Source: Vicinamibacteria bacterium (GTDB taxonomy: Bacteria; Acidobacteriota; Vicinamibacteria; Marinacidobacterales; Marinacidobacteraceae). From it: 64,000 nucleotides of DNA. Shown in pieces: positions 410 through 64,000 of this stretch. The stretch lies in the NCBI GenBank assembly GCA_965232015.1, contig OZ246946.1:245562-309561 (forward strand), given 5' to 3'. The notes beneath the pieces were generated by a model that had not been told where the DNA came from, searched no databases, and saw nothing but the letters and a program-made list of their open reading frames with translations. The translations under genes were made by a program, and so were the position numbers. Numbering within the stretch: position 1 is the first letter of the stretch; each line of letters starts with the position of its first letter.

Positions 410-443
410 GGCGGGGATTATCCGCCGTCCCCGTCCAAGCAGC

Positions 444-2355: not shown

Positions 2356-2399
2356 TCGGGCCCTTTCGGAGCGGCGGGATGACGAAGTAGAGTCAGGCC

Positions 2400-2549: not shown

Positions 2550-2586
2550 TCCGGGCGCCCGATCCCGGCTGCGACGGAGGTGTCCG

Positions 2587-3570: not shown

Positions 3571-3671
3571 GGCGCGTCATCGCTTCCTTTGGGGCTTCCT
3601 CCGCGCGCTCGTTCGTCGAACGGTTCCGCTGGGACGGCTGGACCCCGGACGAGCGCGCGACGCTCCTGTTC

Positions 3672-4136
3672 GTGGTCACCGGCGGGCGAATCCTGCTGAT
3701 CGAGAAGCACCGCGGGCTCGGCGAAGGGAAGGTGAACGGCCCCGGTGGACGCCTCGAACCCGGCGAGACGCCCCGGGAAGCCGCGATCCGGGAGACCGAG
3801 GAGGAGGTGCTCGTCCGCCCCACTGGAGTCCGGTTCGCGGGCGAGCTGCAGTTCCAGTTCACGAGCGGCTTTTCGATCCACGTCCACGTCTTCCGCGCCG
3901 ACGGCTGCATCGGAGAGCCCGGCGGGACCGAGGAAGCCACCCCGCTGTGGGCTTCGCTCGACCGGATCCCCTATGACCGCATGTGGGAAGACGACGCGGT
4001 GTGGCTGCCGCTCCTCCTGCGCCGGGAGCGGTTCTCGGGACGCTTCGTCTTCGAAGGGGACCGGATGCTCACCCACGAGATCCGGACCGGGGCGGAGATC
4101 GCCGAGCCGGAATCCGACCTCGACGCGCGGGCCTGA
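3672..4136 (+). CDS. NUDIX hydrolase (MutT-like)
   Basis: Nudix box GGRLEPGETPREAAIRETEEEVLV. No ATG is in frame after the upstream stop. GTG at 3672 is the most plausible start, but the in-frame upstream stretch FRWDGWTPDERATLLF looks protein-like. Confidence 0.7.
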   Translation: MVTGGRILLIEKHRGLGEGKVNGPGGRLEPGETPREAAIRETEEEVLVRPTGVRFAGELQFQFTSGFSIHVHVFRADGCIGEPGGTEEATPLWASLDRIPYDRMWEDDAVWLPLLLRRERFSGRFVFEGDRMLTHEIRTGAEIAEPESDLDARA

Positions 4137-4170
4137 CCGGACGCCGGGTCGAGCAGGTCGGAGCCGTCCG

Positions 4171-6687: not shown

Positions 6688-7514
6688 AAGTGCTGACCTG
6701 GAACGTCAACCGGGCTGGGGAGTCGCGGCGCGGACTGTGGGAGTTCCTTCGGCGCGAACAGCCGGACATCGTCCTGCTTCAGGAGGTTGCGGGGATTCCG
6801 GCGCGCGTCCTCGACGGTTACCACAGTCACCGGGTCGCGCCGAGGTACTTCGACGGCAGAAGGGCACCGTTCTCGACGGCCATTCTCTCCCGGGGCGCCC
6901 TTGATGCGACCCCGTACCTCGGATCGGAGTTGCCGTGGGTGGAGAGGATCCACCGGGAGCGGCGCGGATGGATCATCGAGTGCCGGTCGGTGCTCCCCAG
7001 CGGGGAGAGCATCCGGGTTGTTTCCGTTCATTCGCCCGCGTTTCCCATTCCCGAGAGTGAGCTGGCCGGTGTGGACGTGGCCGGGATCCAACTGACGAAC
7101 AATCCGAAAGTCTGGTTCACGGAGATCCTGTGGGCTCTCCTTCGTAGCACCGGCGTCTCCGCCGATACGCACTGGATCGTCGCTGGTGACTTCAACAGCT
7201 CCGTGAAGTTCGATGACCCGTACGACAGGGGCAATCGCCAGATCATCGAACGCCTGAATGCTCTTGGCTTGACCGACTGTCTGAGTTACTTCCACAGCCG
7301 GGCGGTGCCGACATTCCAGCATTCGGGCAAGTCCGTCATTCATCAGTTGGACTACTGCTACGTGAGCTCTCCGTTGCTGTCGCGCCTTGCGCGGGCGGAC
7401 GTGCCCGGTCAGGACGAGGTCTTCCGGACGCAGCCGAGGCTGAGCGACCATCTTCCGATCGTGTGCGAATTCGACGGAGTCTCTTCCGATCCAGACCGCC
7501 CAGGAGATGCCTGA
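6684..7514 (+). CDS. endonuclease/exonuclease/phosphatase (EEP) family protein
   Basis: MKVLTWNVNRAG...IVLLQEV...WIVAGDFNS...SDHLPIV are the EEP motifs. Start ATGA-overlaps the preceding ATPase. The gene is lower GC than its flanks. Confidence 0.8.
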   Translation: MKVLTWNVNRAGESRRGLWEFLRREQPDIVLLQEVAGIPARVLDGYHSHRVAPRYFDGRRAPFSTAILSRGALDATPYLGSELPWVERIHRERRGWIIECRSVLPSGESIRVVSVHSPAFPIPESELAGVDVAGIQLTNNPKVWFTEILWALLRSTGVSADTHWIVAGDFNSSVKFDDPYDRGNRQIIERLNALGLTDCLSYFHSRAVPTFQHSGKSVIHQLDYCYVSSPLLSRLARADVPGQDEVFRTQPRLSDHLPIVCEFDGVSSDPDRPGDA

Positions 7515-7555
7515 ACAGGCCCTCACCCGGGCCGAGCGCCCGCGCCTCGCTCGCG

Positions 7556-10552
7556 CTACTGCGCGGCGGAGCAGCGGGTGATGAAAGTCCGCTGCTCCTC
7601 GGTGGAGGGGTCGTTGGCGGCGCAGGCGGCAAGGGCTTCGGCCGCTTCGTCCCGCCGACCGAGGGCGGTCAGCGCTTGCGCCCGGAACCAGAGCGGACGG
7701 GCCTCGGTGGCGCGGTGGGCTCGTCCGACGCCGAGGTTCTCCGGATAGGTGAGCGCGTGGTCGAAATGGGCCAACGCGGTCTCGGCCTCGCCCTCCGCGA
7801 GTGCGGCGCGTCCCAGTTCGACGTGGGCGGCCGAGAAGAGCTGCCAGATGGTGGCGTCGCCCTCGCGGAAGTTCACTTCGGCCCGCTCCAGCAGCGCGAT
7901 CGTGTCCTCGTAGCGGCCGGTGGCGCCCAGCGCTCGCGCCCACTCGATGTTGATGTCGTGGCGGCGTCGCAGCCCCTCCGGAATCCGCTCCAGCACCGCG
8001 GTCGCGGCGGCGGGGCGTCCCTGCTCGAGGTGGAGGCGGGCGAGGTCCCGGTAGAGGGTCTGATCGCGGTGGCGGGCGGCGATCGCCTGCTCGAGGTGGT
8101 GTTCTGCTTCCGTCGGCTGGTCGAGGAGCTTCCAGTGGATCATGCCGAGGCCCCGGTGGGCGGTGGAGAGACCCGGATCCCGCTCGATGGCGGCCTCCCA
8201 GGCGGCCATGGCCTCGTCGTAGCGGCTCAGTCCGGCGAGCAGCCGTCCCAGCAGCAGGCGGGGCGCGGGTTCGCCGGGCGCGGTCCGGGCGGCGTCGCGC
8301 AGCACGCGCACCGACTCGGGGCGCGAGGGGAAGTGGTAGTCGAGACGCGGCCGGTGCCCGCGCTGCCGGTTGCGGTCCCGCTCGGCGATGTCCCCGACCT
8401 GCCCGGCCCAGTCCCCCGCGTGGTACCAGAGCATCGGCCCCGGGGCGAATCCCGCGTCCTCGATCAGGGCGTCGAGCGCGTCGAGGGCGACTTGCGGCAG
8501 CCCGGCTTCGGCCGTGGTGAGGAGCGCCTCGATCAGGGCGAACTCGGGCTCTCCGGCCAGCGCCAGCATGGCCCGGGCGGCCTCGGCGCGACTCGCGTCG
8601 TCGCCCGCGGTGTGGATCCGGACGACCCACGGGATCAGGCTCACGGTGCCCGCTTCGATCTCCCGGTGGGCGTCGGCGGCGCTGGCGTCGGCGTCTCCGG
8701 TGGCGAGCCGCGCCAGCAACAGCCAGTCGGAAACCGGAGCGCCGAGCTCGGCCGCGGTCTCGAGGGCGCGCATGGCGGCTTCGGGCTCCCCCGTGTTCAG
8801 CAGGATCCGGCCGGCGAGACGCCAACCGACCGCCTCCGCTCCGGCGAGCTTGGTGGCGAGGTAGGCGGAGTCGAGCCCGGCTTCCGGATCTCCGGCGCGG
8901 TAATGAGCCACGCCGAGCAGGAAACGGGCGAATCCGTGCTCCGGATCGGCGCCCACGATCCGGGTGAGGCGCTTCGATGCCGCCTCCCACAACCCCGCCT
9001 TCAGGTCGAGGACGGCGAGGCCGACGCCGGCGTCCCGGTGGTCGGGGGCGAGGGCGAGCGCCCGTTCGTAGAGCCGGCGGGCCTCGGCCCGATTCAGGTC
9101 CTTGTCGGCCCGCTCCGCGGCGGCGAACGCCTCCTCCGCTGTAGTCGGCTCGGTCGCTACCGGGAGCGCCGGCGGCTCTTCAGCCGGGATCTCGAGCGGG
9201 GACCGGTAGGCGAGGATCGCCTCTCCCTCGACGATGACCTCGACCTGGACCGGCGTCGCCTGATCGCCCTCGGATCGCAGATTCGCGGGGAGTCGGACCT
9301 CCGTCGCCTCGGTCGGCGTGAGATCGCGCACCTCGGTGTGCTCGCCTGACGCGGTTCGAAGCGTCACTGCGGCGCTCGGCAGATCCCGGGCGGCGAGGAA
9401 CAGGAACCGGGTCGCTGCGTCGGCCTCGACGCGTTCCACCACGAGATCGGGCGCCGCGTACTCGAAGCCCTCGCCGAGCCCGAACACCGGCGCCCACTGC
9501 TCCCGCCACGCCACCGTCTGGCCGGGGTGGAGCCAGGCGTAGTCCGACTGGGTGGGCAGCGGCCCGCTCTGAACTTCGATGTAGGGGCCGTCCTCATCGG
9601 TGAGGTTGCGCTGGTTCATCGCCCCGTCGTCTCCCTGGCCCCATGTCCAGCCCTTCTTGCCGGGCAGCTCCCGGTGGTCGGCGGTCTGGACGATCCCCCG
9701 GTCATCACCGGAGTCGTAGGCGCCGAAGAAGTCGTGGACCGCGCGGTAGGCGAAGATCGAGGTCGGCTCCGGGTAGTTGGGGAGCCGGGTCATGTCCACG
9801 CCGTTGTCTTCCGGAAACCGGTAGAAGGTCGTCCCGAAGTGGTCGGAGGCCAGCGACATCGGGTAGATGAAGCGGGTTCCTTCGCGCTGCGGGAAGGCGG
9901 TGTTGTTCCAGAAGTAGTAGGGGTGCGGCAGGTCGGTCGGGTTGAACAACCGGATTTCCTGGTCGAGCCGCGCGACGCCGGGGCGCAGCGTCAGCCGGAC
10001 TTCCCAGCCGGTGCGGAAGCTCTGTTCGATCTCGCCGATCACCAGCGTCGCCGAGCCGTCCGGATTCTGAACGCCGGTCACGTTGACCGGGGAGTAGCTG
10101 GTGACGGTGTGGCCCTGCGGCCCCCGGTTCCACTCGATCCCGCCGGAGACCCACGCTCCCCGAAGCGCGATCAGACCGGGTCGGATGACCTGGTTGTTGT
10201 AGAACATCTGCTCGTTCTCGCGCTTGTCCAGCACCCACTGGATGCGTCCGCCGATCTCGGGCAGGCAGGCGATCCTGAGGTACTCGTTTTCGAGGAAGAA
10301 CGCCTTCCAGGTGTGGTCGGCGCGCTCGCTTCCCAGGTTGTCCTGCATCGTGTACGGATAGACGATGGAGCCGTCGGTCTCCCGGAATTGCGGGTTCGGG
10401 TCGTCGGGCAGGAGCGCGTAGGTCGGAAGCGTCAGCTCGCCCTCCCAGGCGCGGACCGCCTCCTGGGCGGCGGCGCCGGCGGGGACGAGAAGGGCCAGGC
10501 ACAGACAGGGGGCGCGGAAGGACCAGGCGGGGAATCGGAGCAAGGCGCTCAC
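7556..10552 (-). CDS. secreted DUF5107-like N-terminal domain protein with C-terminal TPR repeats
   Basis: Signal peptide VSALLRFPAWSFRAPCLCLALLVPAGAAAQ from GTG 10552 with a GAGG RBS. The C-terminal half has TPR-like helices. The N-terminal extension of the track ORF (to 10786) is Arg-rich and spurious. Confidence 0.75.
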   Translation of the reverse strand: MSALLRFPAWSFRAPCLCLALLVPAGAAAQEAVRAWEGELTLPTYALLPDDPNPQFRETDGSIVYPYTMQDNLGSERADHTWKAFFLENEYLRIACLPEIGGRIQWVLDKRENEQMFYNNQVIRPGLIALRGAWVSGGIEWNRGPQGHTVTSYSPVNVTGVQNPDGSATLVIGEIEQSFRTGWEVRLTLRPGVARLDQEIRLFNPTDLPHPYYFWNNTAFPQREGTRFIYPMSLASDHFGTTFYRFPEDNGVDMTRLPNYPEPTSIFAYRAVHDFFGAYDSGDDRGIVQTADHRELPGKKGWTWGQGDDGAMNQRNLTDEDGPYIEVQSGPLPTQSDYAWLHPGQTVAWREQWAPVFGLGEGFEYAAPDLVVERVEADAATRFLFLAARDLPSAAVTLRTASGEHTEVRDLTPTEATEVRLPANLRSEGDQATPVQVEVIVEGEAILAYRSPLEIPAEEPPALPVATEPTTAEEAFAAAERADKDLNRAEARRLYERALALAPDHRDAGVGLAVLDLKAGLWEAASKRLTRIVGADPEHGFARFLLGVAHYRAGDPEAGLDSAYLATKLAGAEAVGWRLAGRILLNTGEPEAAMRALETAAELGAPVSDWLLLARLATGDADASAADAHREIEAGTVSLIPWVVRIHTAGDDASRAEAARAMLALAGEPEFALIEALLTTAEAGLPQVALDALDALIEDAGFAPGPMLWYHAGDWAGQVGDIAERDRNRQRGHRPRLDYHFPSRPESVRVLRDAARTAPGEPAPRLLLGRLLAGLSRYDEAMAAWEAAIERDPGLSTAHRGLGMIHWKLLDQPTEAEHHLEQAIAARHRDQTLYRDLARLHLEQGRPAAATAVLERIPEGLRRRHDINIEWARALGATGRYEDTIALLERAEVNFREGDATIWQLFSAAHVELGRAALAEGEAETALAHFDHALTYPENLGVGRAHRATEARPLWFRAQALTALGRRDEAAEALAACAANDPSTEEQRTFITRCSAAQ

Positions 10553-49813: not shown

Positions 49814-51775
49814 ATGCATTTCTCTTGTTGTCGCATCCTCTTTCTTGTGGGTTCCGCAGGGATCGCAGCCGGCTTCGCAGCTTCCGGCTGCGCCGCGCCG
49901 GCCCCCCGGTTCGACGAGGCCCGGCTCCTCGAGCACATCTCGACGCTCTCCTCGGACGAATTCGGAGGCCGCGCCCCCGGCTCGCCCGGTGAGGAGAAAA
50001 CCGTCGAGTTTCTGACCCGCGGCTTCGCCGAGGCGGGGGTCGAGCCCGGCAACCCGGCGCTCGACGGCGCGGCGGCGTGGACCCAGCCGGTCCCGCTCGT
50101 CGGCTACGGCGCGACCACGATGGAGGCTTCCTCGGATCCGGGCGGCGGCTGGACCCCCGGCGAGGCGTTCGTCGCGTGGACGCGCCGCGACGAGCCGGTG
50201 ACGGAGGCGTCGGGCGAGCTGGTGTTCGCGGGCTACGGCGTTCAGGCCCCCGAATACGGCTGGGACGACTTCGGGGACGCCGACCTCGACGGCAAGATCA
50301 TCGTGGTCCTCGTGAACGACCCGCCCGGCGACCACCACTTCGGTGGCGACGCGATGACCTACTACGGCCGCTGGACCTACAAGTACGAGCAGGCGCTCGC
50401 CGCCGGAGCTCTCGGCGCGCTGATCGTCCACGAGACCGGCCCGGCGGGGTATCCGTGGGAAGTCGTCCAGGGCTCGTGGACCGGCCCCCAGTTCGATCTC
50501 CGCGCCCCGGCCGGGGACGATGCGCCCGAGCATCTCCCGGTCCAGGGCTGGATCCATCTCGACCTCGCGACCTCGCTCTTCGCGGCGGCAGGCGCGGATT
50601 TCGCCGAGGCGAAGGCGCGCGCCGCCGACGCCGGGTTCGTCCCCGAGCCGCTCGGCGTCACCGCCGAGTTTCGGATCGAGACCACCCGCACCGAGCTCGA
50701 ATCGAACAACGTGATCGCCCGGATCCCGGGAACCGAAGCGCCCGACGAGACGGTGATCTACACCGCCCACTGGGACCACCTCGGGACCGCCGAAGGCATG
50801 GAGGGCGACAACATCTTCAACGGCGCATTCGACAACGCCACCGGGACGGCGGGTCTCCTCGCCCTCGCCGAGGCGTTCATGGCGGAGGGCGCGCCGCGCC
50901 GCAGCATCGTCTTCCTCGCCGTGACGGCAGAGGAGCAGGGGCTCCTCGGCTCACGCCACTACGCGGACAACCCGCTCTACCCCCGGGCCGACACGGTGGC
51001 GGCGCTGAACATGGACGGTCTGAACGTGTGGGGCCCGACGTCCGACATCACCGTCGTCGGTCTCGGCCAGTCCGATCTCGACGACGTGGCCGCGGAGGTC
51101 GCCGCCGGGCTCGGACGCACGCTCAGCCCCGACCCGGAGCCGGAGAAGGGCTATTACTACCGCTCCGACCACTTCGAGTTCGCCCGGGTGGGGATCCCGG
51201 CGTTCTATCCGGACACCGGCACCGACTTCATCGGTCGCAGCCCCGACTACGGCATGGAGGTCCGCGACGCCTACGTGGCCGAGCGCTACCACAAGCCCGG
51301 TGACGAAGTGCTGCCCGAGTGGGATCTCGGCGGCATGGTGACGGATCTCGAGTTCCTCTACCGCATGGGCCGGAGGCTCGCGGAGGACGACGACTGGCCC
51401 GCCTGGTCTCCCACCAGCGAGTTCCGCGCCCGCCGCCGGCGCGCCGGACTCCAGTCCGGCACCGAGCGTCCCGGCCAACCGGCGCCTCCCTGCCGGAGCG
51501 CCGGACTCCAGTCCGGCACCGAGCGTCCCGGCCAACCGGCGCCTCCCCCCCGGAGCGCCGGACTCCAGTCCCTTGCCGGCGCGCCGGACTCCAGTCCGGC
51601 AATTCCACGCCGGCGCACGCTGCGGGAGCGCCGGACTCCAGTCAGGCACCGGTCAAGAGGGTTGCGTGCCGGACTGGAGTCCGGCGCTCCAGGGCGCTCC
51701 ATCGCGACCGCGTCGGGGCGGCAGGATTTGAACCTGCGACCCCCTGATCCCGAACCAGGTGCTCTGCCAGACTGA
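49814..51775 (+). CDS. M28-family peptidase (PA domain + M28 aminopeptidase), lipoprotein
   Basis: Lipobox AASGC. Motifs HWDHLG, NGAFDNATG, FLAVTAEEQGLLGS, RSDHFEF. The 3' end has no in-frame stop until 51773, reading through the REP cluster into tRNA-Pro, so the true C-terminus is uncertain. Confidence 0.7.
   Translation: MHFSCCRILFLVGSAGIAAGFAASGCAAPAPRFDEARLLEHISTLSSDEFGGRAPGSPGEEKTVEFLTRGFAEAGVEPGNPALDGAAAWTQPVPLVGYGATTMEASSDPGGGWTPGEAFVAWTRRDEPVTEASGELVFAGYGVQAPEYGWDDFGDADLDGKIIVVLVNDPPGDHHFGGDAMTYYGRWTYKYEQALAAGALGALIVHETGPAGYPWEVVQGSWTGPQFDLRAPAGDDAPEHLPVQGWIHLDLATSLFAAAGADFAEAKARAADAGFVPEPLGVTAEFRIETTRTELESNNVIARIPGTEAPDETVIYTAHWDHLGTAEGMEGDNIFNGAFDNATGTAGLLALAEAFMAEGAPRRSIVFLAVTAEEQGLLGSRHYADNPLYPRADTVAALNMDGLNVWGPTSDITVVGLGQSDLDDVAAEVAAGLGRTLSPDPEPEKGYYYRSDHFEFARVGIPAFYPDTGTDFIGRSPDYGMEVRDAYVAERYHKPGDEVLPEWDLGGMVTDLEFLYRMGRRLAEDDDWPAWSPTSEFRARRRRAGLQSGTERPGQPAPPCRSAGLQSGTERPGQPAPPPRSAGLQSLAGAPDSSPAIPRRRTLRERRTPVRHRSRGLRAGLESGAPGRSIATASGRQDLNLRPPDPEPGALPD
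51431..51690. repeat. REP-like repeat cluster (about 7 units, both orientations)
   Basis: Repeated GCGCCGGACTCCAGTCCGGCACCGAGCGTCCCGGCCAACCGGCGCCTCCC superunits. Confidence 0.85.
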
Positions 51776-51786
51776 GCCACGCCCCG
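51713..51786 (-). tRNA. tRNA-Pro (anticodon CGG)
   Basis: Reverse complement CGGGGCGTGGCTCAGTCTGGCAGAGCACCTGGTTCGGGATCAGGGGGTCGCAGGTTCAAATCCTGCCGCCCCGA. Anticodon loop TTCGGGA is identical to E. coli tRNA-Pro(CGG). Confidence 0.85.
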
Positions 51787-52758: not shown

Positions 52759-53097
52759 GCTTTCTTCTTCTGGCGGGTCTTGGCGGGGTCAAGATCGGGA
52801 GCCGGACCGGACGCGCCCGCCTCCCGGAAAGAGAGACGGAGGACCGCGGCGTCCCAACCATCGGCCCCGCCAGACCGACGCACCATGGCCTGGAACCCGC
52901 CGATCGAAGCCCGGAGAGGGGCCGGGCCAACCCCCCGAAATCCATGCTTGACATCCCCGCCCGTACTGTGTTGAAGTAAACGCCCGTGCTCGCACTCCGG
53001 CAGTCGTCCCCTTGGATGTACTACCCCGGCGCGAGCCAACTCCTTCTACTGGTTCCCGCCATGCGCAGCATCAAGCCGTCTCCCGACGTTTTGACCT

Positions 53098-53125
53098 TGC
53101 CCCCCGAAGCCTTCCTGCCTATACT
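53098..53125 (+). promoter_or_regulatory. candidate sigma70-like promoter (TTGCCC -16- TATACT) in a low-GC patch upstream of the first FN3 lipoprotein gene
   Basis: The region 52930-53200 is conspicuously AT-richer than the genome. Confidence 0.3.
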
Positions 53126-53296
53126 TTCTCGGCAGTTGGCCCGTGGGCTGTGTGCGCACCGGGCCGCCCCGTCCTACGGGAGGTAGAAATGATTTTCACG
53201 AGACGGCGCCTTGCCCTCTCCGGATCCCCACCGGGATCTTCGGACCAGGCTGCAGACGCGGTCCTGTCCATCAACGCCCTACAGGAGGTAGGCGAA

Positions 53297-55900
53297 ATGA
53301 CGCAGTTCACGAGGAAGTCGGTCCCCCGCGGGCTGACCCTCCTCCTTGCCCTGTTCCTGGGTGCCGGTCTCGTGCTCTCGGGATGCGGTGAGGACGAAAC
53401 CCCCGCCCCGGCGCCGGCTCCGGCCCCTGCGCCACCCCCTGCCCCCGAGCCTGAGCCCGAACCGGAACCCGAGCCAGAGCCCGAGCCGCCCGCTACGCCT
53501 ACCGGCCTCATGGTTTCGGAGACCACCGAAACCTCCATCACCTGGACCTGGGACGCCGTCGAAGGCGCGATCGGTTACGCAGTGCAGGCCAGCGCGGATC
53601 AGGTGTTCGACGACTCGGACATGATCCACCCTGCGGCCGAGACCACCTTCACCGCTGCGGACCTCGAGCCGGGCACCACCATGTCGGTCCGCGTGGCCGC
53701 CGCGGGAGCGCTCGACGGGTCGCTGAACAGCGCGTGGACGACCCACATCACCGCCACGTCGGCGGTGCCTCCTCCGGTGGTGATTCCGGTCCCGAGCGGC
53801 TTCATGGCCGAGGGTGGAGACGGCTCCATCACGTGGAGCTGGGACGCCGTTGAGGGCGCCGACGGGTATGCGATCCAGGTCAGCTCGGACGAGATGTTCG
53901 ATGACATGGACGCGACGACCTACACGATGGAGACCTCGCACACCGTCGAGGATCTCGGTTACTCCGAGAGCAGGTTCGCGCGAGTTGCGTCCACTGCTGG
54001 TGAGGGCGACGACATGATGATGAGCATGTGGAGCACCCACATGACGGGCATGTCGGCCGCCGCAGCTCCCCTGCCTCCGCCTTCCGTGACGTTCTCCCTG
54101 CCGGACGGTCAGAGCCACTTCATGGTCGCGGACGACGACGATGACGAGGCCACGGCCATGGCTTGGATCAACCCCAAGACCGTCGTGGAGTCGGACTCCA
54201 CCGCGATCATCACTCCGATGTTCGTGGACGGCGCCAACGGGGTCCATGTGGGCGCCAGTGACGACAACATGCCGTTCACCTACGTGGGAGCCGAGGACAA
54301 CTGGGAAATGCTCCAGAGCGCCGTGCTCGACGGTGGCGCGACCTTCATGGTCCAGCGGACCACGATGGGCGCCAACCAGGAGATGGAGCCGAGCAACGAT
54401 GTGTCCTACTACACCTGCGGTCCGTTCGAGTGCGCGGAGGGAGAGGACGCCCCGGATCTTTCGATCGCCAACTCCAAGGCCTGCACGGCTTGGGATCCGA
54501 TGGTGGAGATCCAGGTCGGCAAGGTGGACAACGACGTCATCGTTCCCGATGACGGTGAGGAAACCGCGGACGGCTTGAACACGAACGACGGTATCGACTT
54601 GGGCATCGTCACCAGCTCCAGTCTCGAGATGAATGTCAAGAGCGTCTTTTCTGGTGTTGAGGGAGGCACGAACACCTCTTCCACCGTTGAGGCCGCGAGC
54701 GGCAGCAACAAGACCCTCGAAGTGACGGCCGTCAACGGGGTGATCCGGATCGATGGAGACAACCTGGACACCGATGCCGACGAGGAGGACTACGTGGTCT
54801 GCGACAACGACTACACATTGGAAAATGTGAGCAGTAAGGCAGACCGGCCTGTGGGCTGCTTCCGGCTGATCGGTCCCGGCGCCATGGGCAGGGACGCTGC
54901 CAAGGGCCCTGACTACTTGTCCGGCTGGAGCATCGAGCTGAGTCCCGTGGACGGCGACGTGACTTGGGGCAACGTTGACTGGGAGGACGATCCGTTCGAG
55001 GATCTCGAGTGCGGCGCCGCCGATCCGATCATGGTGGCCGACCATGTGGATGTCTGCTCCATGTTCGAGGCCGAGGTGGATGGCGCCACCGCCCGGGGCT
55101 GGACCCCTGAAGTGGTGTTCGACGGGACGAGCAATCAGGTCACCATGTGGCGCGCCAGCACCCGCGCTGCCACTGACCACGAGGCGATGTTCAAGACGCT
55201 CTGGTTCGACGACAATCTGAATGGCAAGATCAAGAATGACGGGACCCTTGCCCGCGCACGCCCCGCGCCTGCGGATGGGGCTACTGCCAACGCCATGCAC
55301 GATCTCTACGATCAGAATGAGAACGATGGGAACCTTGAGGTGATCTGGGAGCACCTGACCGACTCCGATGGGGACCTGATCAGCGCCGTGGGCGACCTCG
55401 GCAAGGCTGACCTTCTGAGCGACTCGGACAACAAGAGTACTGTCGACGATGAGCGCACGATTTTGGTGGAGACGTGCACCGGAGACGGGGCGACTTGGAC
55501 GCCGGCAAGTTACACCGGTACCGACCCCAGTGCCGGTTGTGTCGGGGGTACCTACAACACCACCGGCGACTTGGCGATCAAGACCAACCCGGACGGCAAC
55601 GCGGACAACTATGTCGATACTGCCCCCTCGGTCGTCTTCTCTGACTTCCGCGGATGCAGCGAGGATGACGGCGGCGACGATGCCGACGGTTCCGAATGCG
55701 ATGCGACGTGGGTCCACGATGTCACGATTCTGTTCGCGGACGGCACGTTCGGCTGCAGCACGACTCGAGATGTGACCATCACGTGCGAGTGGGACGCTGA
55801 CGGCGGAATGGCCCAGGGCCGTAACGCTCTGCCGAACAGCTTTGACGGAGAGGGCGATGACAGCAATCTCGACAACTTCCTCAAGTGCACCGCCAACTAG
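53297..55900 (+). CDS. secreted lipoprotein with (PE)n linker, two FN3-like domains and a large acidic C-terminal domain
   Basis: Signal/lipobox LLLALFLGAGLVLSGC. AGGAGG RBS. PAPAPAPAPPPAPEPEPEPEPEPEP linker. FN3 pattern PTGLMVSETTETSITWTWDAVEGAIGYAVQ. About 60% GC. An in-frame upstream ATG at 53189 (MIFTRRR...) also has an RBS. Confidence 0.7.
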   Translation: MTQFTRKSVPRGLTLLLALFLGAGLVLSGCGEDETPAPAPAPAPAPPPAPEPEPEPEPEPEPEPPATPTGLMVSETTETSITWTWDAVEGAIGYAVQASADQVFDDSDMIHPAAETTFTAADLEPGTTMSVRVAAAGALDGSLNSAWTTHITATSAVPPPVVIPVPSGFMAEGGDGSITWSWDAVEGADGYAIQVSSDEMFDDMDATTYTMETSHTVEDLGYSESRFARVASTAGEGDDMMMSMWSTHMTGMSAAAAPLPPPSVTFSLPDGQSHFMVADDDDDEATAMAWINPKTVVESDSTAIITPMFVDGANGVHVGASDDNMPFTYVGAEDNWEMLQSAVLDGGATFMVQRTTMGANQEMEPSNDVSYYTCGPFECAEGEDAPDLSIANSKACTAWDPMVEIQVGKVDNDVIVPDDGEETADGLNTNDGIDLGIVTSSSLEMNVKSVFSGVEGGTNTSSTVEAASGSNKTLEVTAVNGVIRIDGDNLDTDADEEDYVVCDNDYTLENVSSKADRPVGCFRLIGPGAMGRDAAKGPDYLSGWSIELSPVDGDVTWGNVDWEDDPFEDLECGAADPIMVADHVDVCSMFEAEVDGATARGWTPEVVFDGTSNQVTMWRASTRAATDHEAMFKTLWFDDNLNGKIKNDGTLARARPAPADGATANAMHDLYDQNENDGNLEVIWEHLTDSDGDLISAVGDLGKADLLSDSDNKSTVDDERTILVETCTGDGATWTPASYTGTDPSAGCVGGTYNTTGDLAIKTNPDGNADNYVDTAPSVVFSDFRGCSEDDGGDDADGSECDATWVHDVTILFADGTFGCSTTRDVTITCEWDADGGMAQGRNALPNSFDGEGDDSNLDNFLKCTAN

Positions 55901-56600: not shown

Positions 56601-56879
56601 GGGCTGGGCCGCGCAGAGAGAGGTCAGTTGGGTCCCCGTTAGCGAACGGTTGCGCGCCGGCCGGCGGCGCTGCGAGCCCCTGATAGGCTAGACGCCAAGG
56701 CATGGGGGAACCGCCCGACGGGTTGGTCCTCGCATGTCGCCGCAGGGGCCAGAGCGATCGGCCGCCCGCGATGACCGGTAGCGGGCCGCGGGCTGAGTGT
56801 GGTACCATGCGGCTGATAGATGTGTCCTGACATGCGCGGGCAGAGCCTGCGCCGCAACACCGGCCGGGAGGTAGGTGAC

Positions 56880-59447
56880 ATGAAGTCGCTCACAGGCAAG
56901 TTTTCGTCCGTCCGCGGATGGGCTTTGCTGCTGATCCTGTTCCTCGGCGCGGGCCTCATGATGGCGGCCTGCGGGGATGACGAACCGGCGACCACTCCGG
57001 TGCCGGCTCCGGCCCCCGAGCCCGAGCCCGAGCCCGAGCCCGATCCGCCGGCTGTGCCGACTGGCCTCCGCATCGCCGCCATCGGTCAGGACTTCATCGA
57101 GTGGATCTGGACGCCGGTGGGGAACGTGAGCGGCTACGACGTGCAATACAGCGTCAACGAGGTGTTCACCGACGAGGACGAGATCATCGCCCGGACGGCC
57201 GAGCAGGTCACCTACCGCCGGGAGGGCCTCGAACCGGAGGCTAGCGGGTCGGTGCGGGTGCGGTCCGCCGCCGGAACCGGCGACGATCGGATCACGAGCG
57301 GCTGGTCCACCCACGTGACCGGGATGGCGATGGCCGTTCCGGTGGCGCCCCCGACTCCGACCGGCCTCGCGGTTTCGGCGACGGAGACTTCGATCACCTG
57401 GACCTGGACCGCCGCCCCGGGAGCGGAGGGCTACGTGGTGCAGATCAGCGAGGATGAGGTGTTCGAGACGATGTTCGAGGGGGCGGACCACTACGCGGTG
57501 ACCCGCGAGACGTCCCACACGATCGCCGGGCTGGAGGCGGAGACGACCCGGTATGCGCGGGTGGCGGCCGGGGTGCTGACGGGCGCGGTTCCTTCGCTGG
57601 ATCCGGGCGACTACCTGCTCAGCGCGTGGACGATCCACGCGACGGGGATGACGGAGGCGGCGGCGCCGGAGAGGCCGCCAGCCCCGGCGAACGTGCGGCT
57701 GAGGATGCGGGGCTCCGACTACCTCGAGTGGACGTGGGACGCGGTCGAGGGGGCGAGCGGCTACCAGAGCCAGTTCAGCGCCAGTTCGACCTTCCCGAGC
57801 GGGCAGGCGGGCAGCGAGATCCACCAGGGGATGGCCAGCACCACCCGCCGGGTCGCGAACCTGGACGCGGAATCGGACGGCCACCTCCGGGTGCGGACTT
57901 ACACGGGGACTCTGACCGAGCCGACCTACGGGGACTGGAGCGACGGCCATCGGGCGACGACCGCCGAGCCGCCGCCAGCGGTGGCGCTCGACGCTCCCGA
58001 GGGCCTGCGGGGCTCGGCCGAGACTGCGACTTCGATCACGCTCACGTGGGACGAGGTGGACGATGCCGACGCCTACGAGGTGCGGCAGCGGGAGCCTGGC
58101 GGCGCGTGGTCTGACGCGAGCTGCGGATCGGCGACCGCGGACAACGAGGTTGCCGACGAGGAATGCGTCGCGAGCGGCCTGGACTCGGGCACCGACTACG
58201 ACTTCGGGGTTCGGGCGCTCCCGGCGAACAACGACAGGGCGCACAACGCCAGCACGTGGAGCGACACGCTGGAGTCGAGCACGACCGGCACCTCCACCAC
58301 GACCCCACCCCCAACCACCTCCGGCGGCGAGAGCGGACCGCTCAACATCAGTTGGGACAGCAGCGGCGGAACGATCACCTGGTATTGGGACCAGGCCGCA
58401 GACCGAACCTCCGACTACGAGAGATGGAAGTCTGCAGCGTCTGCGGACGGCGTGGATGCCGCCATAAAGTGTCCCGCAGCCAGCGCCGCCGTTTGGGCCG
58501 CCGGCGGCGGGACTCGCACCCTGGACGGAGACACGCGGGAGCCCCAGGAGGCTGCCACGCCTGGCAGCGCGTACCTCCTGTGCGTTCGGTCCGTCAAGGA
58601 AAACACGCGGAGCGCGGTCTCCTACGCCTGGGCGATCGTCCCTACCGACATCACGGGCGGCGAGCCCAGCGCAGAATCCAGACAGGTGACGACCGCCATC
58701 AGCTTTGGCATCACTCTCGATCCGGGCTTCACCTACCAGCTTCGCCGCGTTTCCACGAGCGTCAACGACGATACCTTCGACGCGCGCGACTGCAGCGGTG
58801 GCACGGCGCTCCGCGATGAGGTCAGCGATTTCCCGAGTCTCCCACTGGGGTCCTACGAGGTGGGAGCCCTGTCTCCATACACTCGCTATGGGCTGTGCTA
58901 TCGCGCCACAAACGACGCCGGCGCCTCGGAGTGGCAGTTCACGGAGAACGGCGTCCTGACTCTTCCTGGCCGGCCGAGCGCACCTGTCGCGGCGGTCAGT
59001 TCCATCGCGCATGATGCGACGTCCCGCGATGCCGTGTGGAACGTGGCGACTAGCGGAAACGCCCGGGTGCCGCGGGCTCACGAGGCATACGACGTCAAAG
59101 TGATCTCGATGCGCTCAGCCAACCCCTACGTCAGCGGTGACACCGGCCCGAGGAGCCCTGACCTGTCGCTAGCGGATTGTGAAGCCACCTCGGCGCGCAC
59201 GAATACGACATCCGAAGACGTTGCGCCGGGAGATCGGAGCAACAATCAGAGGGGATTCACCGTGACACACGATGTGGAGGGGCCCGCAACGCCAACGGCA
59301 GAGGAGCCGAACATGGACCAGGACTACCGGGTCTGCGTTCGCGCTCACCTGGGCGGCGGCACGCACCAGGGGGCCGCCGACGCGCGAAAGGGCCCGTGGG
59401 TCCTTGGTTCGCTCGTCGTGAAGAGGGACGCTCCTGCGTCGAACTAG
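56880..59447 (+). CDS. secreted lipoprotein with (PE)n linker and about six FN3-like domains; paralog of 53297..55900
   Basis: MKSLTGKFSSVRGWALLLILFLGAGLMMAAC lipobox. RBS GGGAGG. Repeated PTGL...SITWTW... FN3 modules. Confidence 0.7.
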   Translation: MKSLTGKFSSVRGWALLLILFLGAGLMMAACGDDEPATTPVPAPAPEPEPEPEPDPPAVPTGLRIAAIGQDFIEWIWTPVGNVSGYDVQYSVNEVFTDEDEIIARTAEQVTYRREGLEPEASGSVRVRSAAGTGDDRITSGWSTHVTGMAMAVPVAPPTPTGLAVSATETSITWTWTAAPGAEGYVVQISEDEVFETMFEGADHYAVTRETSHTIAGLEAETTRYARVAAGVLTGAVPSLDPGDYLLSAWTIHATGMTEAAAPERPPAPANVRLRMRGSDYLEWTWDAVEGASGYQSQFSASSTFPSGQAGSEIHQGMASTTRRVANLDAESDGHLRVRTYTGTLTEPTYGDWSDGHRATTAEPPPAVALDAPEGLRGSAETATSITLTWDEVDDADAYEVRQREPGGAWSDASCGSATADNEVADEECVASGLDSGTDYDFGVRALPANNDRAHNASTWSDTLESSTTGTSTTTPPPTTSGGESGPLNISWDSSGGTITWYWDQAADRTSDYERWKSAASADGVDAAIKCPAASAAVWAAGGGTRTLDGDTREPQEAATPGSAYLLCVRSVKENTRSAVSYAWAIVPTDITGGEPSAESRQVTTAISFGITLDPGFTYQLRRVSTSVNDDTFDARDCSGGTALRDEVSDFPSLPLGSYEVGALSPYTRYGLCYRATNDAGASEWQFTENGVLTLPGRPSAPVAAVSSIAHDATSRDAVWNVATSGNARVPRAHEAYDVKVISMRSANPYVSGDTGPRSPDLSLADCEATSARTNTTSEDVAPGDRSNNQRGFTVTHDVEGPATPTAEEPNMDQDYRVCVRAHLGGGTHQGAADARKGPWVLGSLVVKRDAPASN

Positions 59448-60143: not shown

Positions 60144-62435
60144 CTACTCGGTCTTCTGTCTGATTTCCGAAGAGTCGCTGATGACCCAAGGACCGGCGCG
60201 CCAACCGCCTTCAGCCTTTACTCGAACACACAGCTGCACCCTCCGGTCGTCAAGGTCCGGATCGTCAAGCTCAGGGCGTGCGAATTCGCCGGACTCGACT
60301 GTGATTCCTTGCGGGTTGTCCGTCGCAGAAATCAGGGCGCTCTCGCTCGGGTCGAATCCCGGAGTGCTAAGGGTACCCGCGCTGCACGCAGCCTGTACAT
60401 CCCTGGAGGGAACGCTCGTAACAGTCCTGAGTGCGGTACCGGTATCGCTGTCGTGATCGTACTTTTCGCGATAGCTGAGAGTTCTCGCGTCGAACTCAGC
60501 GCCATTCCTCGGGACATCCCGCCTACTGCGGACGGGCAGCGTCCACACTACCTTGCTCGCGGTGTCGTGATCCAGTGTCGTTCTCGAACTGTCCACGACA
60601 GGCCTCGGCGGGGCGGCTGGAAGAGTAGTGACCTGGCCTGTAGTTGCCACCCACGATGTCTGCCCTTTGGCGTTGTGGTACCGCATGCAGAGGGAGTACC
60701 TCGTGAAAGATTGAAGACCTTGGCTGAAGGGGACGTCAACATCTACCAGTGGGACGTCTGTGTCGCCCTGAGCAACGACCGCTCCCGAGGCACACGCACT
60801 CCCCAACTCGCTCGCACTTGCCGGGACGTTGTCGCGTCCGGGTGTGGCTATCGTGCGGAGGTCATAGTTGAAACCGCCCGCGATATTCGCAACAGTCCAT
60901 TGAACCGATGTGGTTCGACTTCCGTCCTCCCGGTCAGTGAAGGTGCCGGCAGCGGGGAGGGCCGGAGTCGTAATCGCCCACGCGAACGAAACATCATCCT
61001 CTTCGTCGTGTGGCCTCACGCACAGCAAACGAGTGTTTCCCGGCTCCAAACTCAGGCTAGTCAAAGTGTGAGAGGTCTGTGCGGAGTTGTATCCGGCCGT
61101 GTTGGCGTCTGCTGGCCAGGTCACCGCGGTACCGGTACAGGGGTTTGAGGAGTCGCTATAGGTGGTTGCAGTAGAGACTACGAAGTCATACCGCCCCTCT
61201 CCAACACGATCCCAGATCCAAGTGATGCTAGTGGCCGTACTCTCCCAACGGACGTTCAGGTTTCCGGAGCCGCCGCCGGTGGTCGGGGGTGGAGTGGTCG
61301 TGGAGGTGCCGGTGGTGCGCGACTCCAGCGTGTCGCTCCACGCGCTGGCGTTGTGCGCCCTGTCGTTGTTCGCCGGGAGCGCCCGAACCCCGAAGTCGTA
61401 GTCGGTGCCCGAGTCCAGGCCGCTGGCCACGCATTCCTCGTCGGCAACCTCGTTGTCCGCGGTCGCCGATCCGCAGCTCGCGTCAGACCACGCGCCGCCA
61501 GGCTCCCGCTGCCGCACCTCGTAGGTGTCGGCATCGTCCACCTCGTCCCAGGTGAGCGTGATCGAAGTCGCAGTCTCGGCGGAGCCCCGCAGTCCCTCGG
61601 GAGCACCGAGCGCCACCGCTGGCGGCGGCTCGGCGGTCGTCGCCCGATGGCCGTCGCTCCAGTCCCCGTAGGTCGGCTCGGTCAGAGTCCCCGTGTAAGT
61701 CCGCACCCGGAGGTGGCCCTCCGATTCCGCGTCCAGGTTCGCGACCCGGCGGGTGGTGCTGGCCATCCCCTGGTGGATCTCGCTGCCCGCCTGCCCGCTC
61801 GGGAAGGTCGAACTGGCGCTGAACTGGCTCTGGTAGCCGCTCGCCCCCTCGACCGCGTCCCACGTCCACTCGAGGAAGTCGGAGCCCCGCGTCCTCAGCC
61901 GGACGTTCGCCGGGGCTGGCGGCCTCTCCGGCGCCGCCGCCTCCGTCATCCCCGTCGCGTGGATCGTCCACGCGCTGAGCAGGTAGTCGCCCGGATCCAG
62001 CGAAGGAACCGCGCCCGTCAGCACCCCGGCCGCCACCCGCGCATACCGGGTCGTCTCCGCCTCCAGCCCGGCGATCGTGTGGGACGTCTCGCGGGTCACC
62101 GCGTAGTGGTCCGCCCCCTCGAACATCGTCTCGAACACCTCATCTTCGCTGATCTGCACCACGTAGCCCTGCGCTCCCGGGGCCGCGGTCCAGGTCCAGG
62201 TGATCGAAGTCTCCGTCGCCGAGACCGCGAGGCCGGTGGGAGTCGGGGGCGCCACCGGAACGGCCATCGCCATCCCGGTCACATGGGTGGACCAGTCGCT
62301 CGTGATCCGATCGTCGTCGGTTCCGGCGGCGGACCGCACCCGCACCGACCCGCTAGCCTCCGGTTCGAGGCCCTCCCGGCGGTAGGTGACCTGCTCGGCC
62401 GTCCGGGCGATGATCTCGTCCTCGTCGGTGAACAC
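60144..62435 (-). pseudogene. 5'-truncated inverted paralog of the FN3 lipoprotein at 56880..59447 (no signal peptide, lacks first FN3); break-point at a REP element
   Basis: The first 480 residues are near-identical at the DNA level to 57135-58315. Homology ends exactly at the REP unit at 62468. The remaining C-terminus is divergent but FN3-like. Only a GTG start and no signal peptide. Confidence 0.55.
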
Positions 62436-62467
62436 CTCGTTGACGCTGTATTGCGGCCAGCGCGCCT

Positions 62468-62500
62468 CTGCCGGCGCGCCGGACTCCAGTCCGGCAATTC
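62468..62500. repeat. REP-like unit at the duplication break-point
   Basis: CTGCCGGCGCGCCGGACTCCAGTCCGGCAATTC. Confidence 0.8.
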
Positions 62501-62594
62501 ACCAAGGCAATGCGGGTCGCGGCCCCGCTCTGGAGAACCCCACCGGGAGCGCCTTCGGCCGGTGTCGGCCATCAGGAACGGGCGCCCGATGCGG

Positions 62595-63193
62595 CTATGC
62601 CGGCCAGCCCATCTCGTCGAAACCGGACCGCAGCTCATCAAGGCTCTCGTCCACTGTCCGGACATGGGCGTTCACGTGCTCCGCGTCGTCGAGCGCCGGG
62701 CCGCAGGCAACCGCCGCGGCGGTATTCAGCCCCAAGTCGCCCCACCAGACCCCCGTGGCCTTCTCGAGCATCGGACTGGATCCGAGCACGTAGCCGAGCC
62801 GCAGCCTCGCCATCCCGTAGCCTTGGCGAAGGTGCGAGCGACGATCACCGGGCCGTCCGCCACCGCGAGGGACACGGCGTCCTCTCTTTCGTCCCGGAAC
62901 TCGCCGTAGGCCTCATCCACGATCAGGATCCCGCCGCAGGAGAACCGCTCGGCCACAGAGACGATGTCGGCGCGCGAGACCGGGGCGCCGGTGGGGTTGT
63001 TCGGGTTCGCCAGATACACGATCCGGGTGTCGCGACGGATCGCCTGACGCATCGCCACGACATTGAGCGTCCCTTCGGGGCCCATCGGAGCGCGGATCAC
63101 TTCCGCGCCGATCGCCTCCGCGAGGCCGCCCCACCAGCCGCAGGTGGTTTCGCGGAGCACGACGCTCGTAGCTCCCGGCTCGCCCGTACACAC
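62595..63193 (-). pseudogene. class I/II aminotransferase (HisC-like) remnant: 5'-truncated and carrying a 1-nt frameshift
   Basis: Frame A gives VYLANPNNPTGAPVSRADIVSVAERFSCGGILIVDEAYGEF...VARTFAKATG. Frame B continues MARLRLGYVLGS. Removing one nt restores the consensus RTFAKATGMARLRLGY. The N-terminal about 100 aa are absent. Confidence 0.6.
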
Positions 63194-63282
63194 TCTTGAA
63201 ACATCCGGGAGTCCCGACTAGCATCACGCTACCCTTTCGTTCTCGCGGCCGAGTCGCTTCTCACCACTGCTCGGAGTGCTCC

Positions 63283-63744
63283 ATGACAGCAGACACCCCG
63301 TTCTTCATTGACGGCAAGCCCCATGGGTTTGAGCGCCAACTGAGCGTGTCTAAGCTTCTCGACATGGCTGGACAATCCACTCGCGCCGCCGTTCTGGTCA
63401 CTGAGGACGGAACGGAGCACGAAAATCCCGACGAGCTGATCACGATCGCGCCACGTGAGCACTTTCAGACCAAGATGCGCGACGCGTGTCAAGAGCCTGC
63501 TGACCCTTCAATCCGTTACGCTGTGAACGGCGAGGCGAACTCCACGACCGAGAATCCGATATCGCTCCGGTCCATCCTGCAAAACGCCGGAGTCGGAGCC
63601 GCGATCGACCTCTCAGACCTGGACAGCTATTACCTGGAGAACACGGTGGATGGTCGCAAGTACGAGCACCTCGACGATCTGGTCACGGTCTCAGGCGGGG
63701 ACAATTTCCTCGCGATCCACGTTGGCAGCACACCCGTAGCGTGA
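63283..63744 (+). CDS. multiubiquitin-domain protein (tandem beta-grasp, PF14452-like)
   Basis: Two ubiquitin-like repeats: FFIDGKPHGFERQLSVSKLLDMAGQ...ITIAP and IRYAVNGEANSTTENPISLRSILQNAGVGAAIDLSDL...VTVSGGDNFLAIHVGS. About 58% GC. Confidence 0.55.
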   Translation: MTADTPFFIDGKPHGFERQLSVSKLLDMAGQSTRAAVLVTEDGTEHENPDELITIAPREHFQTKMRDACQEPADPSIRYAVNGEANSTTENPISLRSILQNAGVGAAIDLSDLDSYYLENTVDGRKYEHLDDLVTVSGGDNFLAIHVGSTPVA

Positions 63745-63750
63745 ACTCCA

Positions 63751-64000
63751 GTGCTCGAAACAATCTGCGACGAGTTGCGGGATATCGGGCTTGCACCGAG
63801 GATCGTCGAGTTCCCGGGTTTTTCGCACTCGAGTCGCGCCGTCATCTTTGATGTGGAGGTGCAGCACGGCCGTTACAAGGGGGCGATCCTGGCGATCGCT
63901 GTGAGCTTTCAAGAGGACGCATATCCCGAATACCCACCGCACTTCGTGCACTTCAAGTCGTCCATTGACACGAAGTTCAGGGAGCACACCACGCACGTCT
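63751..64000 (+). CDS. prokaryotic E2 (ubiquitin-conjugating enzyme-like) protein, N-terminal part; continues beyond the window
   Basis: GTG start 6 nt after the multiubiquitin stop. VLETICDELRDIGLAPRIVEFPGFSHSSRAVIFDVEVQHGRYKGAILAIAVSFQEDAYPEYPPHFVHF has the UBC-like YP-x-x-PP-x-F signature. Confidence 0.5.
   Translation, partial: MLETICDELRDIGLAPRIVEFPGFSHSSRAVIFDVEVQHGRYKGAILAIAVSFQEDAYPEYPPHFVHFKSSIDTKFREHTTHV

Follow-up and report, generated by a model that had tools for sequence, protein, structure and literature searches.

The right-hand end of a 64,000-nucleotide (nt) stretch of the genome of a Vicinamibacteria bacterium (assembly GCA_965232015.1, contig OZ246946.1, positions 245,562 to 309,561; hereafter the window, with position 1 as its first letter) raises the question of what kind of system begins there and how it came to lie next to a broken aminotransferase gene. 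Within the window, the element at issue is represented by only about 1.7 genes, namely, a whole gene for a ubiquitin-like protein (Ubl) and two thirds of a gene for an E2-like enzyme. We find that these genes belong to a cassette, a rare, horizontally spread 4.2-kb unit of low G+C (GC) content that consists of a candidate promoter followed by five genes, encoding the Ubl, the E2, a fusion of a JAB peptidase with an E1 enzyme (JAB-E1), an ABC ATPase and a PIN protein. We read the cassette as a variant of the Bub ('6e') conjugation systems, which lacks BubE, is coupled to an ATPase-nuclease pair in the style of Menshen and PARIS and probably serves in antiphage defence; the probability of this reading is, in our estimate, roughly 0.6.

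Conservation, spread and modular composition of the cassette

Beyond the window, the cassette could be followed in closely related DNA from other sources, referred to below by L numbers. L001, L002, L023 and L024 match the last 516-898 nt of the window with two mismatches at most, and from position 63132 rightwards, L001 and L003 show no difference from it. Together, metagenome contigs add the rest of the E2 gene, an overlapping gene for a JAB-E1 protein of 492 amino acids (aa) and a stretch of the ATPase gene that encodes at least 346 aa. All five genes are intact in a sister genome, L031 (a contig of 3.81 Mb, 93-95% identical across the cassette), and encode proteins of 153 (Ubl), 125 (E2), 492 (JAB-E1), 422 (ATPase) and 168 (PIN) aa. 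An exact-pattern scan of Joint Genome Institute metagenomes for DNA extending the window's cassette returned nothing.

A scan covering one genome per species yielded 19 cassette loci. The genes for the Ubl (~154 aa), E2 (~125 aa), JAB-E1 (~490 aa) and ABC ATPase (~420 aa) occur in this order in all 19, the PIN gene (~166 aa) comes next in 18, and the cassette order is also the same in L028 and L031. Judging by the record titles, the hosts include Longimicrobiales and other Gemmatimonadota, Ca. Palauibacter, Binatia, three orders of Acidobacteriota, Gammaproteobacteria, Rhodothermales and Ca. Poriferihabitans. The family is found mostly in uncultured marine metagenome-assembled genomes (MAGs), some of which bear names that we take to be those of sponge symbionts. 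In other genomes, the cassette is found in unrelated contexts; genes flanking the cassettes encode, among others, an MmeI-type restriction-modification enzyme, a DUF1156 methylase, a MORC-like ATPase and transposases of the IS21 and IS3 families. An all-against-all comparison of the open reading frames (ORFs) within 10 kb on either side of the 19 loci revealed no further conserved gene, no DUF6527/BubE and no conserved regulator, and DUF6527 is also missing from the Pfam gene lists of L023, L028, L029 and L031. A scan of viral contigs produced no relative of the cassette, and the cassette ends in L031 carry no terminal direct or inverted repeats of 9 nt or more.

Cross-species homology spans the DNA from window position 63195 to the stop codon of the PIN gene. 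In L031, the tract of low GC content (0.57-0.64, against 0.69-0.73 in the flanks) corresponds exactly to the 4.19-kb cassette. In the window, the GC content is 0.69-0.71 to the left of position 63200 (0.69 at 62900-63199) and 0.59 from there to the window end, close to the drop to about 58% beyond the aminotransferase given in an earlier, sequence-only reading of this DNA (the original prediction hereafter). A candidate sigma-70-like promoter (TTGAAA-17 nt-TAGCAT; 63196-63224, plus strand) lies within the conserved cassette, 59 nt upstream of the Ubl start codon. It is the sole promoter-like site in the region 62400-64000, compared with a mean of 0.2 in shuffled sequence, and the block around it is kept in L001-L003, L031, L004 and L005. 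Stop and start codons overlap or almost touch in most loci, including those at the E1-ATPase junction, and the spacer between the ATPase and PIN genes measures 10 nt in 12 of 15 loci. Furthermore, the pairwise identity matrices of the E1 and the ATPase are correlated at r = 0.97, with none of 2000 permutations reaching a value as high, and those of the E1 and the PIN protein at r = 0.94. The fixed order, shared boundaries, tight junctions and correlated divergence indicate that the five genes have spread across phyla together, as a unit, and have diverged in step.

Both parts of the cassette can also be found apart. ATPase-PIN pairs that lack Ubl genes were identified in L025/L026 and in L027, where the pair adjoins a Cas3 gene; the stand-alone ATPases have all motifs of the cassette ATPase, and the PIN proteins are distant homologues. 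Three-gene Ubl-E2-ThiF operons without ATPase-PIN genes are present in L029 and, as a second set, in L028. The L029 operon (219-3561) encodes a Ubl of 85 aa, an E2 of 129 aa with a weak match to Prok-E2_E and a ThiF protein of 492 aa, and is accompanied by a divergent pair of HTH_3/HTH_31 (helix-turn-helix, HTH) and Peptidase_M78 genes; an HTH-Peptidase_M78 pair is the CapH/CapP-type regulator reported for Bub operons (PMC11601596) and for other operons of defence. L028 carries a complete five-gene cassette and, on the opposite strand, the second trio, with a Ubl of 89 aa, an E2 of 126 aa and a ThiF protein of 506 aa. Since both modules are also found alone, the cassette stably joins a Bub-like conjugation module to an ATPase-PIN module.

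The second trio of L028 is followed by genes for a DUF2188 protein, a Peptidase_S8 protein (773 aa) and an AAA ATPase (L028 7792-9955 and 10027-13788, both on the minus strand), a set that may be another effector pairing of the same conjugation module. In some MAGs, cassette genes are split by frameshifts, as is the case for the E1 gene in L004 (10846-12355) and L020 (10825-12272) and for the ATPase gene in L017 (12059-13563), and L020 has no PIN gene; such split or lost genes reflect either decay of the copy or faulty assembly. A single MAG holds two cassette copies, L017 and L018.

Properties of the cassette proteins

The Ubl gene (63283-63744, plus strand) encodes a protein of 153 aa with two tandem beta-grasp domains; its ATG is preceded at 7 nt by a GGAG motif, and the stop codon is the TGA at 63742-63744. 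An alternative start at TTG 63196, which would open an ORF of 182 aa, was ruled out because the homologues align from the ATG at 63283. The AlphaFold2 (AF2) model, built with 37 homologues, has a mean pLDDT (predicted local distance difference test) score of 82.4 and contains beta-grasp units at residues 5-65 and 77-146, followed by a disordered C-terminal tail. Its top Foldseek matches in the PDB are the bacterial multi-ubiquitin proteins 9cd2, 9d5a, 9d5b and 8u38, linear di-ubiquitin and ISG15, with E-values from 1e-6 to 1e-4. The Ubl has 72 homologues; in the family alignment, the C-terminus ...GSTPVA is invariant, and the stop codon mostly comes straight after it; some homologues have short tails beyond the terminal alanine, and a minority are Ubl-E2 fusions, including L014-L016 (...TPVA-NLNC...) and representatives of 201-286 aa.

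Neither the Ubl nor the E2 matches any profile in Pfam (up to E = 10), NCBIfam or PADLOC, including Multiubiq (PF14452) and Prok-E2_E (PF14462), so that the two proteins were identified through predicted structure, gene context and transitive homology. The tandem beta-grasp multiubiquitin protein of the original prediction is borne out by AF2 and Foldseek, whereas the similarity of the two ORFs to multiubiquitin/E2 profiles, expected along with it, is absent at the sequence level. The UBC-like E2 placed 6 nt further on was predicted correctly: the E2 gene (63751-64000, plus strand), which starts with GTG and runs off the window after 83 of 125 codons, follows the TGA of the Ubl gene after a spacer of 6 nt, the two being separate genes in the window, and the full 125-aa protein is predicted to adopt the ubiquitin-conjugating (UBC) fold, with BubB as its best structural match.

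The E2 is free of cysteine and has an invariant serine, Ser93. Among 1.84 billion representative proteins, it has 68 relatives (34 at E <= 1e-10), including the Ubl-E2 fusions of 201-286 aa. Across 30 diverse members, P63, S93 and W100 are invariant and H64 and H117 nearly so, and no cysteine is conserved. When these 30 relatives were searched against Pfam, seven matched Prok-E2_E (best E-value 1.6e-7) and two matched RWD. The two sets of matches tie the family to the 'inactive E2/RWD-like' protein of the Iyer class 6e, which is now recognised as the serine E2 BubB (PMC11601596). Sequence and profile searches of PDB sequences with the E2 found nothing relevant.

The E1 and the deubiquitinase that had been expected beyond the window are both there, as a single JAB-E1 protein of 492 aa. 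Its ThiF domain, as defined in Pfam, starts at about residue 185, and the N-terminal JAB domain has a complete JAB motif, in which E30, H92, H94, S103 and D106 are invariant. The family profile matches Citrobacter BubCD across both domains at 7.7e-24 (1.2e-16 with the single sequence), BubCD is also the closest solved structure, and in the alignment (HSHP...S..D), H92, H94 and D106 fall on H91, H93 and D104 of BubCD. In the E1 part, there is no conserved cysteine between the CLRC and C..C motifs, and Y356 and Y374 are near-invariant. The CLRC motif (349-352) together with C435 and C439 looks like the structural zinc site of ThiF/MoeB-type enzymes.

The ATPase, located, for instance, at 12318-13583 in L031 and at 2139-3176 in L023, has the Walker A motif GENSxGKT, GYG in the position of the ABC signature, the Walker B motif LLQQPEVHLHP and an ETHSD motif. 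In the PADLOC ranking, NsnB comes first (1.8e-33), followed by PDC-M55A, HEC-03B and AriA; a stand-alone relative matches NsnB over its full length at 3e-44. The deviations in the GYG and Walker B positions resemble, without equalling, those described for NsnB, and, judging by these motifs, ATP hydrolysis may be impaired or regulated.

In the PIN protein (~166 aa), the residues D8, E50, D95 and D120 show no variation and D114 almost none, giving a D-E-D-D acidic set, by which the protein looks catalytically competent. The Pfam PIN profile (PF01850) recognises the L017 member with 25.5 bits against a cut-off of 23.6 and others weakly, and one PIN cluster is labelled 'PIN domain-containing protein' by NCBI. 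Every member, including those of the stand-alone modules, starts with Met-Cys and has a conserved cysteine a few residues from the C-terminus. The invariant Cys2 was considered as an acceptor for Ubl ligation and dropped, because the stand-alone PIN homologues, which have no Ubl genes beside them, share the Met-Cys start and the C-terminal cysteine.

Relationship to known systems and proposed function

The Type I Bub operon, class '6e'/6E.1 of Iyer (2006), consists of BubAB, BubCD and BubE (Ye et al., 2024; PMC11601596). Bub pathways operate by oxyester chemistry without a catalytic cysteine: the Type I E2 has an invariant serine with His/Asp helper residues, and the E1 crossover loop, devoid of cysteine, has a catalytic tyrosine. 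BubE, a DUF6527 serine protease, has been reported in all Bub operons (PMC11601596). The cassette resembles Type I Bub in having a Ubl that contains between one and three beta-grasp domains (two in the AF2 model), an E2 of the UBC fold with an invariant serine and no catalytic cysteine, and a JAB/JAMM domain fused N-terminally to an E1 adenylation domain. By contrast, the Ubl and E2 are encoded by separate genes in the window, whereas Bub has a BubAB fusion that is released by JAB at a glycine, and the Ubl ends in an invariant alanine instead of that glycine. The E2 motif is W-x-x-x-S-(L/R)-P-P, compared to S-x-H in Bub, and the window's E2 is not recognised by Pfam Prok-E2_E. Furthermore, the ABC ATPase and PIN genes are obligatory, and the cassette is without BubE/DUF6527, which sets it apart from Bub Types I and II alike. 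Overall, the cassette lies outside Bub as currently defined, but its first three genes very probably work like Bub.

Bil (BilABCD), which acts against phage, likewise combines a two-domain ISG15-like Ubl, E2, E1 and JAB in one operon; however, it has cysteine thioesters, an E1 of the IAD-AAD-CYS type and a stand-alone JAB, none of which is found in the cassette, where the E1 is a single adenylation domain fused to JAB. In the Type II cyclic-oligonucleotide-based antiphage signalling system (CBASS), Cap2 and Cap3 similarly add a conjugation machine (E1, E2) and a JAB peptidase to a defence effector pathway as its regulator, but Cap2 is an E2-E1 fusion with catalytic cysteines, which conjugates the CD-NTase (cGAS/DncV-like nucleotidyltransferase) itself, and there is no separate Ubl, ATPase or PIN gene.

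The ATPase-PIN module has its counterpart in Menshen (NsnA/NsnB/NsnC), which, like PARIS (AriA/AriB) and Septu (PtuA/PtuB), involves an ATPase-nuclease pair (PMC12065111). Common to Menshen and the cassette are an NsnB-type ABC ATPase, with GYG replacing the ABC signature and an altered Walker B motif, and the small PIN-fold partner that follows it. By contrast, there is no NsnA (ParB/DUF262) sensor in or beside the cassette loci, the Ubl conjugation module being in that place. The partner consists of the PIN domain only, with the D-E-D-D set kept and no C-terminal toxin domain, whereas in NsnC a PIN-like N-terminal domain, described as inactive, is joined to a C-terminal toxin domain (PMC12065111). 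Full-text literature searches, which did not extend to a one-by-one comparison with the 544 operons of the Bub paper, returned no description of the cassette architecture, and the Menshen paper makes no mention of ubiquitin, ThiF or JAB (PMC12065111).

By analogy with Bub (PMC11601596), the E1 would adenylate the Ubl C-terminus, and the Ubl would then pass, in oxyester linkage, from the E1, where a crossover-loop tyrosine would hold it, to the E2, where Ser93 would do so, and on to a lysine of a target. JAB would trim precursors where they are present, namely, Ubl-E2 fusions and short-tailed Ubls; given that the Ubl is already mature in the majority of cases, including the window, JAB would there remove conjugates. 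On the pattern of Menshen, PARIS and Septu (PMC12065111), the PIN RNase would be bound and gated by an oligomer of the ATPase. Ubl conjugation could prime or trigger this effector, as Cap2 does for CBASS, or mark a phage protein for it, and infection would end in RNA cleavage and abortive infection. As for the defence context, a restriction-modification enzyme, the DUF1156 methylase, Cas3 and transposases are encoded beside cassettes or stand-alone ATPase-PIN modules.

A more specific version of this scheme, which we advance tentatively, is that Ubl conjugation directly controls the nuclease effector: the cysteine-free E1-E2 pair might place the alanine-ended di-Ubl on the NsnB-like ATPase, on the PIN RNase or on a phage protein recognised by the ATPase, and JAB might reset the system. 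If so, ubiquitin-like control of an RNase effector would be seen for the first time in bacteria, and the Bub-type oxyester pathway would gain both a substrate and a read-out. The cassette pairs Bub-like machinery with a recognisable effector pair in one operon and thereby offers a candidate for the substrate as well as an output that can be measured, be it RNase activity, toxicity or defence. It further shows that one branch of the lineage can do without BubE and that alanine at the C-terminus may be the end used in conjugation.

Several observations speak against the reading of the cassette as a Bub variant coupled to an ATPase-nuclease pair. The window contains a complete Ubl gene but only two thirds of that for the E2, the remainder of the cassette being taken from identical or 95%-identical DNA elsewhere, and the family as a whole is known from sequence and predicted structure. 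With regard to the conjugation module, a C-terminal alanine is unusual in an E1 substrate, the correspondence between Ser93 and S333 of BubB is a putative one, drawn from conservation and fold, the local E2 motif S-L-P-P is unlike the S-x-H of Type I Bub, and neither Y356 nor Y374 of the E1 can be assigned by alignment to Y370 of BubCD. In the ATPase, QQ replaces D-E in the Walker B motif, and ATP hydrolysis may therefore be weak. Moreover, the authors of the Bub study observed no phage-protection phenotype and no target for Bub, and a function in stress response has been proposed for it. Finally, both modules exist alone, which makes biochemical coupling between them a presumption.

The last point leads to the strongest of the alternatives, namely, that two independent defence systems move together: a Bub-like Ubl-E2-JAB/E1 trio with a target of its own and a self-sufficient ATPase-PIN abortive-infection pair. 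The stand-alone ATPase-PIN genes of L025-L027 and the stand-alone Ubl-E2-E1 genes of L029 and of the second L028 set are in line with this possibility, and clustering is common among defence genes. However, mere co-travel agrees poorly with an order that is fixed in 19 loci as well as in L028 and L031, with E1-ATPase stop/start overlaps in most of them, with a divergence correlated at r values of 0.94-0.97 and with a conserved block that runs from one promoter-like site to the PIN stop codon, a single-operon pattern like that of Cap2/Cap3 added to CBASS. We therefore regard two separate systems as possible, yet unlikely.

Considerably less probable is a canonical Bil/Bub island that integrated into the aminotransferase gene, which is what the original prediction amounted to. 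The start of a ubiquitin-like conjugation operon, as predicted there, is upheld by the comparison above, which places it in the Bub '6e' lineage and not in Bil. Membership in Bil or in canonical Bub is contradicted by the absence of BubE, of a Bil-type E1 and of a cysteine E2, as well as by the separate Ubl and E2 genes, the alanine end and the two extra obligatory genes for the ATPase and PIN protein; the insertion itself we view as already refuted by the sister genome, as detailed in the next section. About equally improbable is a pathway outside phage defence, be it one of housekeeping or stress-response tagging or a sulphur carrier of the ThiS/MoaD-ThiF type, which would suit the ThiF affiliation of the E1 and the stress response proposed for Bub, but conflicts with a Ubl ending in Ala instead of Gly-Gly, the lack of linked sulphurtransferase or cofactor-biosynthesis genes, the joint presence of the E2 fold, JAB, ATPase and PIN, and the rare, patchy, cross-phylum distribution of a family that is low in GC relative to its hosts and lies beside restriction-modification, Cas3 and insertion sequence (IS) genes.

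The aminotransferase pseudogene and the left boundary of the cassette

The gene to the left of the cassette is a remnant of a HisC-like (class I/II) aminotransferase pseudogene (62537-63193, minus strand), in which some 92 residues at the N-terminus as well as the C-terminal end are missing. The ORF at 62726-63193 matches Pfam Aminotran_1_2 at 3.6e-18 (profile positions 108-237 of 361), and the match is extended in another frame by the ORF at 62595-62813 (0.003, positions 223-296). Three-frame translations place the frameshift at 62821-62822 (minus strand), just past the codon of the lysine that binds pyridoxal phosphate (PLP; TFAK/GYG), where the frames join at ...VARTFAK/GYGMARLRLGY... and the codons AAG and GGC have one G in common. 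Adding one base at 62821/62822 yields a continuous fragment of 199 aa (...VARTFAKGYGMARLRLGY...), whereas removing a base does not restore the frame, and in L031 the base is present at this very column of the alignment. In NCBIfam, the restored fragment is best matched by hisC (TIGR01141, 1.1e-29, profile positions 93-279 of 349 in one stretch); with 103 bits against a cut-off of 276, coverage of positions 93-279 only, a frameshift and a premature stop, it falls short of a full-length member of the family. The premature stop is a TAG at 62595-62597 (minus strand), which, by alignment and translations, is TGG in L031. In total, the lesions of the window copy comprise one missing base, the TGG-to-TAG change, one inserted base and deletions at the 3' end. 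The original prediction was accordingly right about a HisC-like gene cut at its 5' end and about a frameshift of 1 nt near 62820, but not about the remedy, which is the addition and not the deletion of a base.

The same pseudogene is present in L031, between the same fibronectin type III (fn3) gene and the cassette. Its segment 6763-7405 is 88% identical in DNA to the window pseudogene, and it is longer at both ends. It retains the C-terminus (...FLRISVGLTEDHW...), and its coding sequence reaches at least HisC residue 72 in a tblastn search, compared to residue 97 in the window, that is, at least 25 residues further towards the 5' end (the query being E. coli HisC). Further upstream, an NPLDPGP motif occurs in another frame. 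The lesions of the L031 copy are a K-to-N change of the PLP lysine, an in-frame stop directly after TRKG and three indels; this stop is also found in the L001/L003 pseudogene, the left end of which is cut at 62922 by unrelated DNA. The lesions differ between the window and L031, which points to independent decay of the two copies. Across three lineages, lesions that arose independently show the gene to be dead, and the aminotransferase is an old decaying pseudogene unrelated to the cassette.

In the window, the deletion junction and the left boundary of the cassette coincide at 63180-63195: aminotransferase homology stops at 63179-63193, cross-species cassette homology sets in at 63195, and the blastn matches of L004 and L005 begin at 63195. 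In L031, the pseudogene and the cassette are separated by about 300 nt and an IS of about 2 kb (7900-9898), which encodes a DDE_Tnp_1_4 transposase and is bounded by inverted repeats of 12 nt (7900-7911 and 9887-9898). The segment L031 7406-9899 is missing, with an identical junction, from the window, L001 and L003 alike (L002 starts to the right of that junction), and the right end of this gap lies one base past the IS terminus, the blastn match resuming at window position 63182, which equals L031 9900, one base past the inverted repeat at 9887-9898.

An insertion of the cassette into the aminotransferase gene would account for the gene end at 63193 abutting the first cassette base at 63195, for the fall in GC at the same place and for the unrelated contexts in which the cassette is found elsewhere. 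It is at odds, however, with L031, where at least 25 more 5' residues, about 300 nt and the IS precede the cassette, and with the absence of exactly 7406-9899 from the window, L001 and L003, with the IS terminus at its right end. L031 still has the 5' coding sequence and the IS, and the IS terminus delimits the missing segment on the right, so that the gene was truncated at its 5' end by a deletion next to the cassette that came later. This IS-associated deletion took away the IS, the region upstream and the beginning of the gene, and the truncation is no trace of cassette entry; the proposal that the island had inserted into the aminotransferase and destroyed it is accordingly not supported.

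The divergence of L001 and L003 from the window changes abruptly near this site. Between 62940 and 63131, they differ from it at 18 of 192 nt (~9%), and to the right of 63131, L001 is identical to it over 869 nt and L003 over 665 nt, a part that includes the candidate promoter, Ubl and E2. The step from about 9% divergence to identity at 63132 looks like a recombination breakpoint near 63131, which would imply a recent exchange of the cassette between diverged strains. L031 also carries an IS21 element (IstA/IstB) at 2308-4163, between fn3 genes; the two IS elements of L031, together with the different left junction in L001/L003, mark the locus as a rearrangement hot spot.

Further to the left, the window contains a tRNA-Pro(CGG) gene at 51712-51786 (minus strand), about 11.4 kb from the cassette, and three ORFs with fibronectin type III domains, at 53012-55897 (plus strand, 962 aa), 56820-59444 (plus strand, 875 aa) and 60144-62435 (minus strand, 763 aa), with fn3 matches of 1.3e-9, 1.1e-22 and 2.4e-17, respectively. 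The third of these has an internal part of low GC content (~0.60 at 60200-61250). The L031 fn3 gene that is otherwise syntenic with window 61210-62466 is, on the reverse strand, 86% identical to window 57143-58900, indicating that the fn3 genes are paralogues or have been rearranged.

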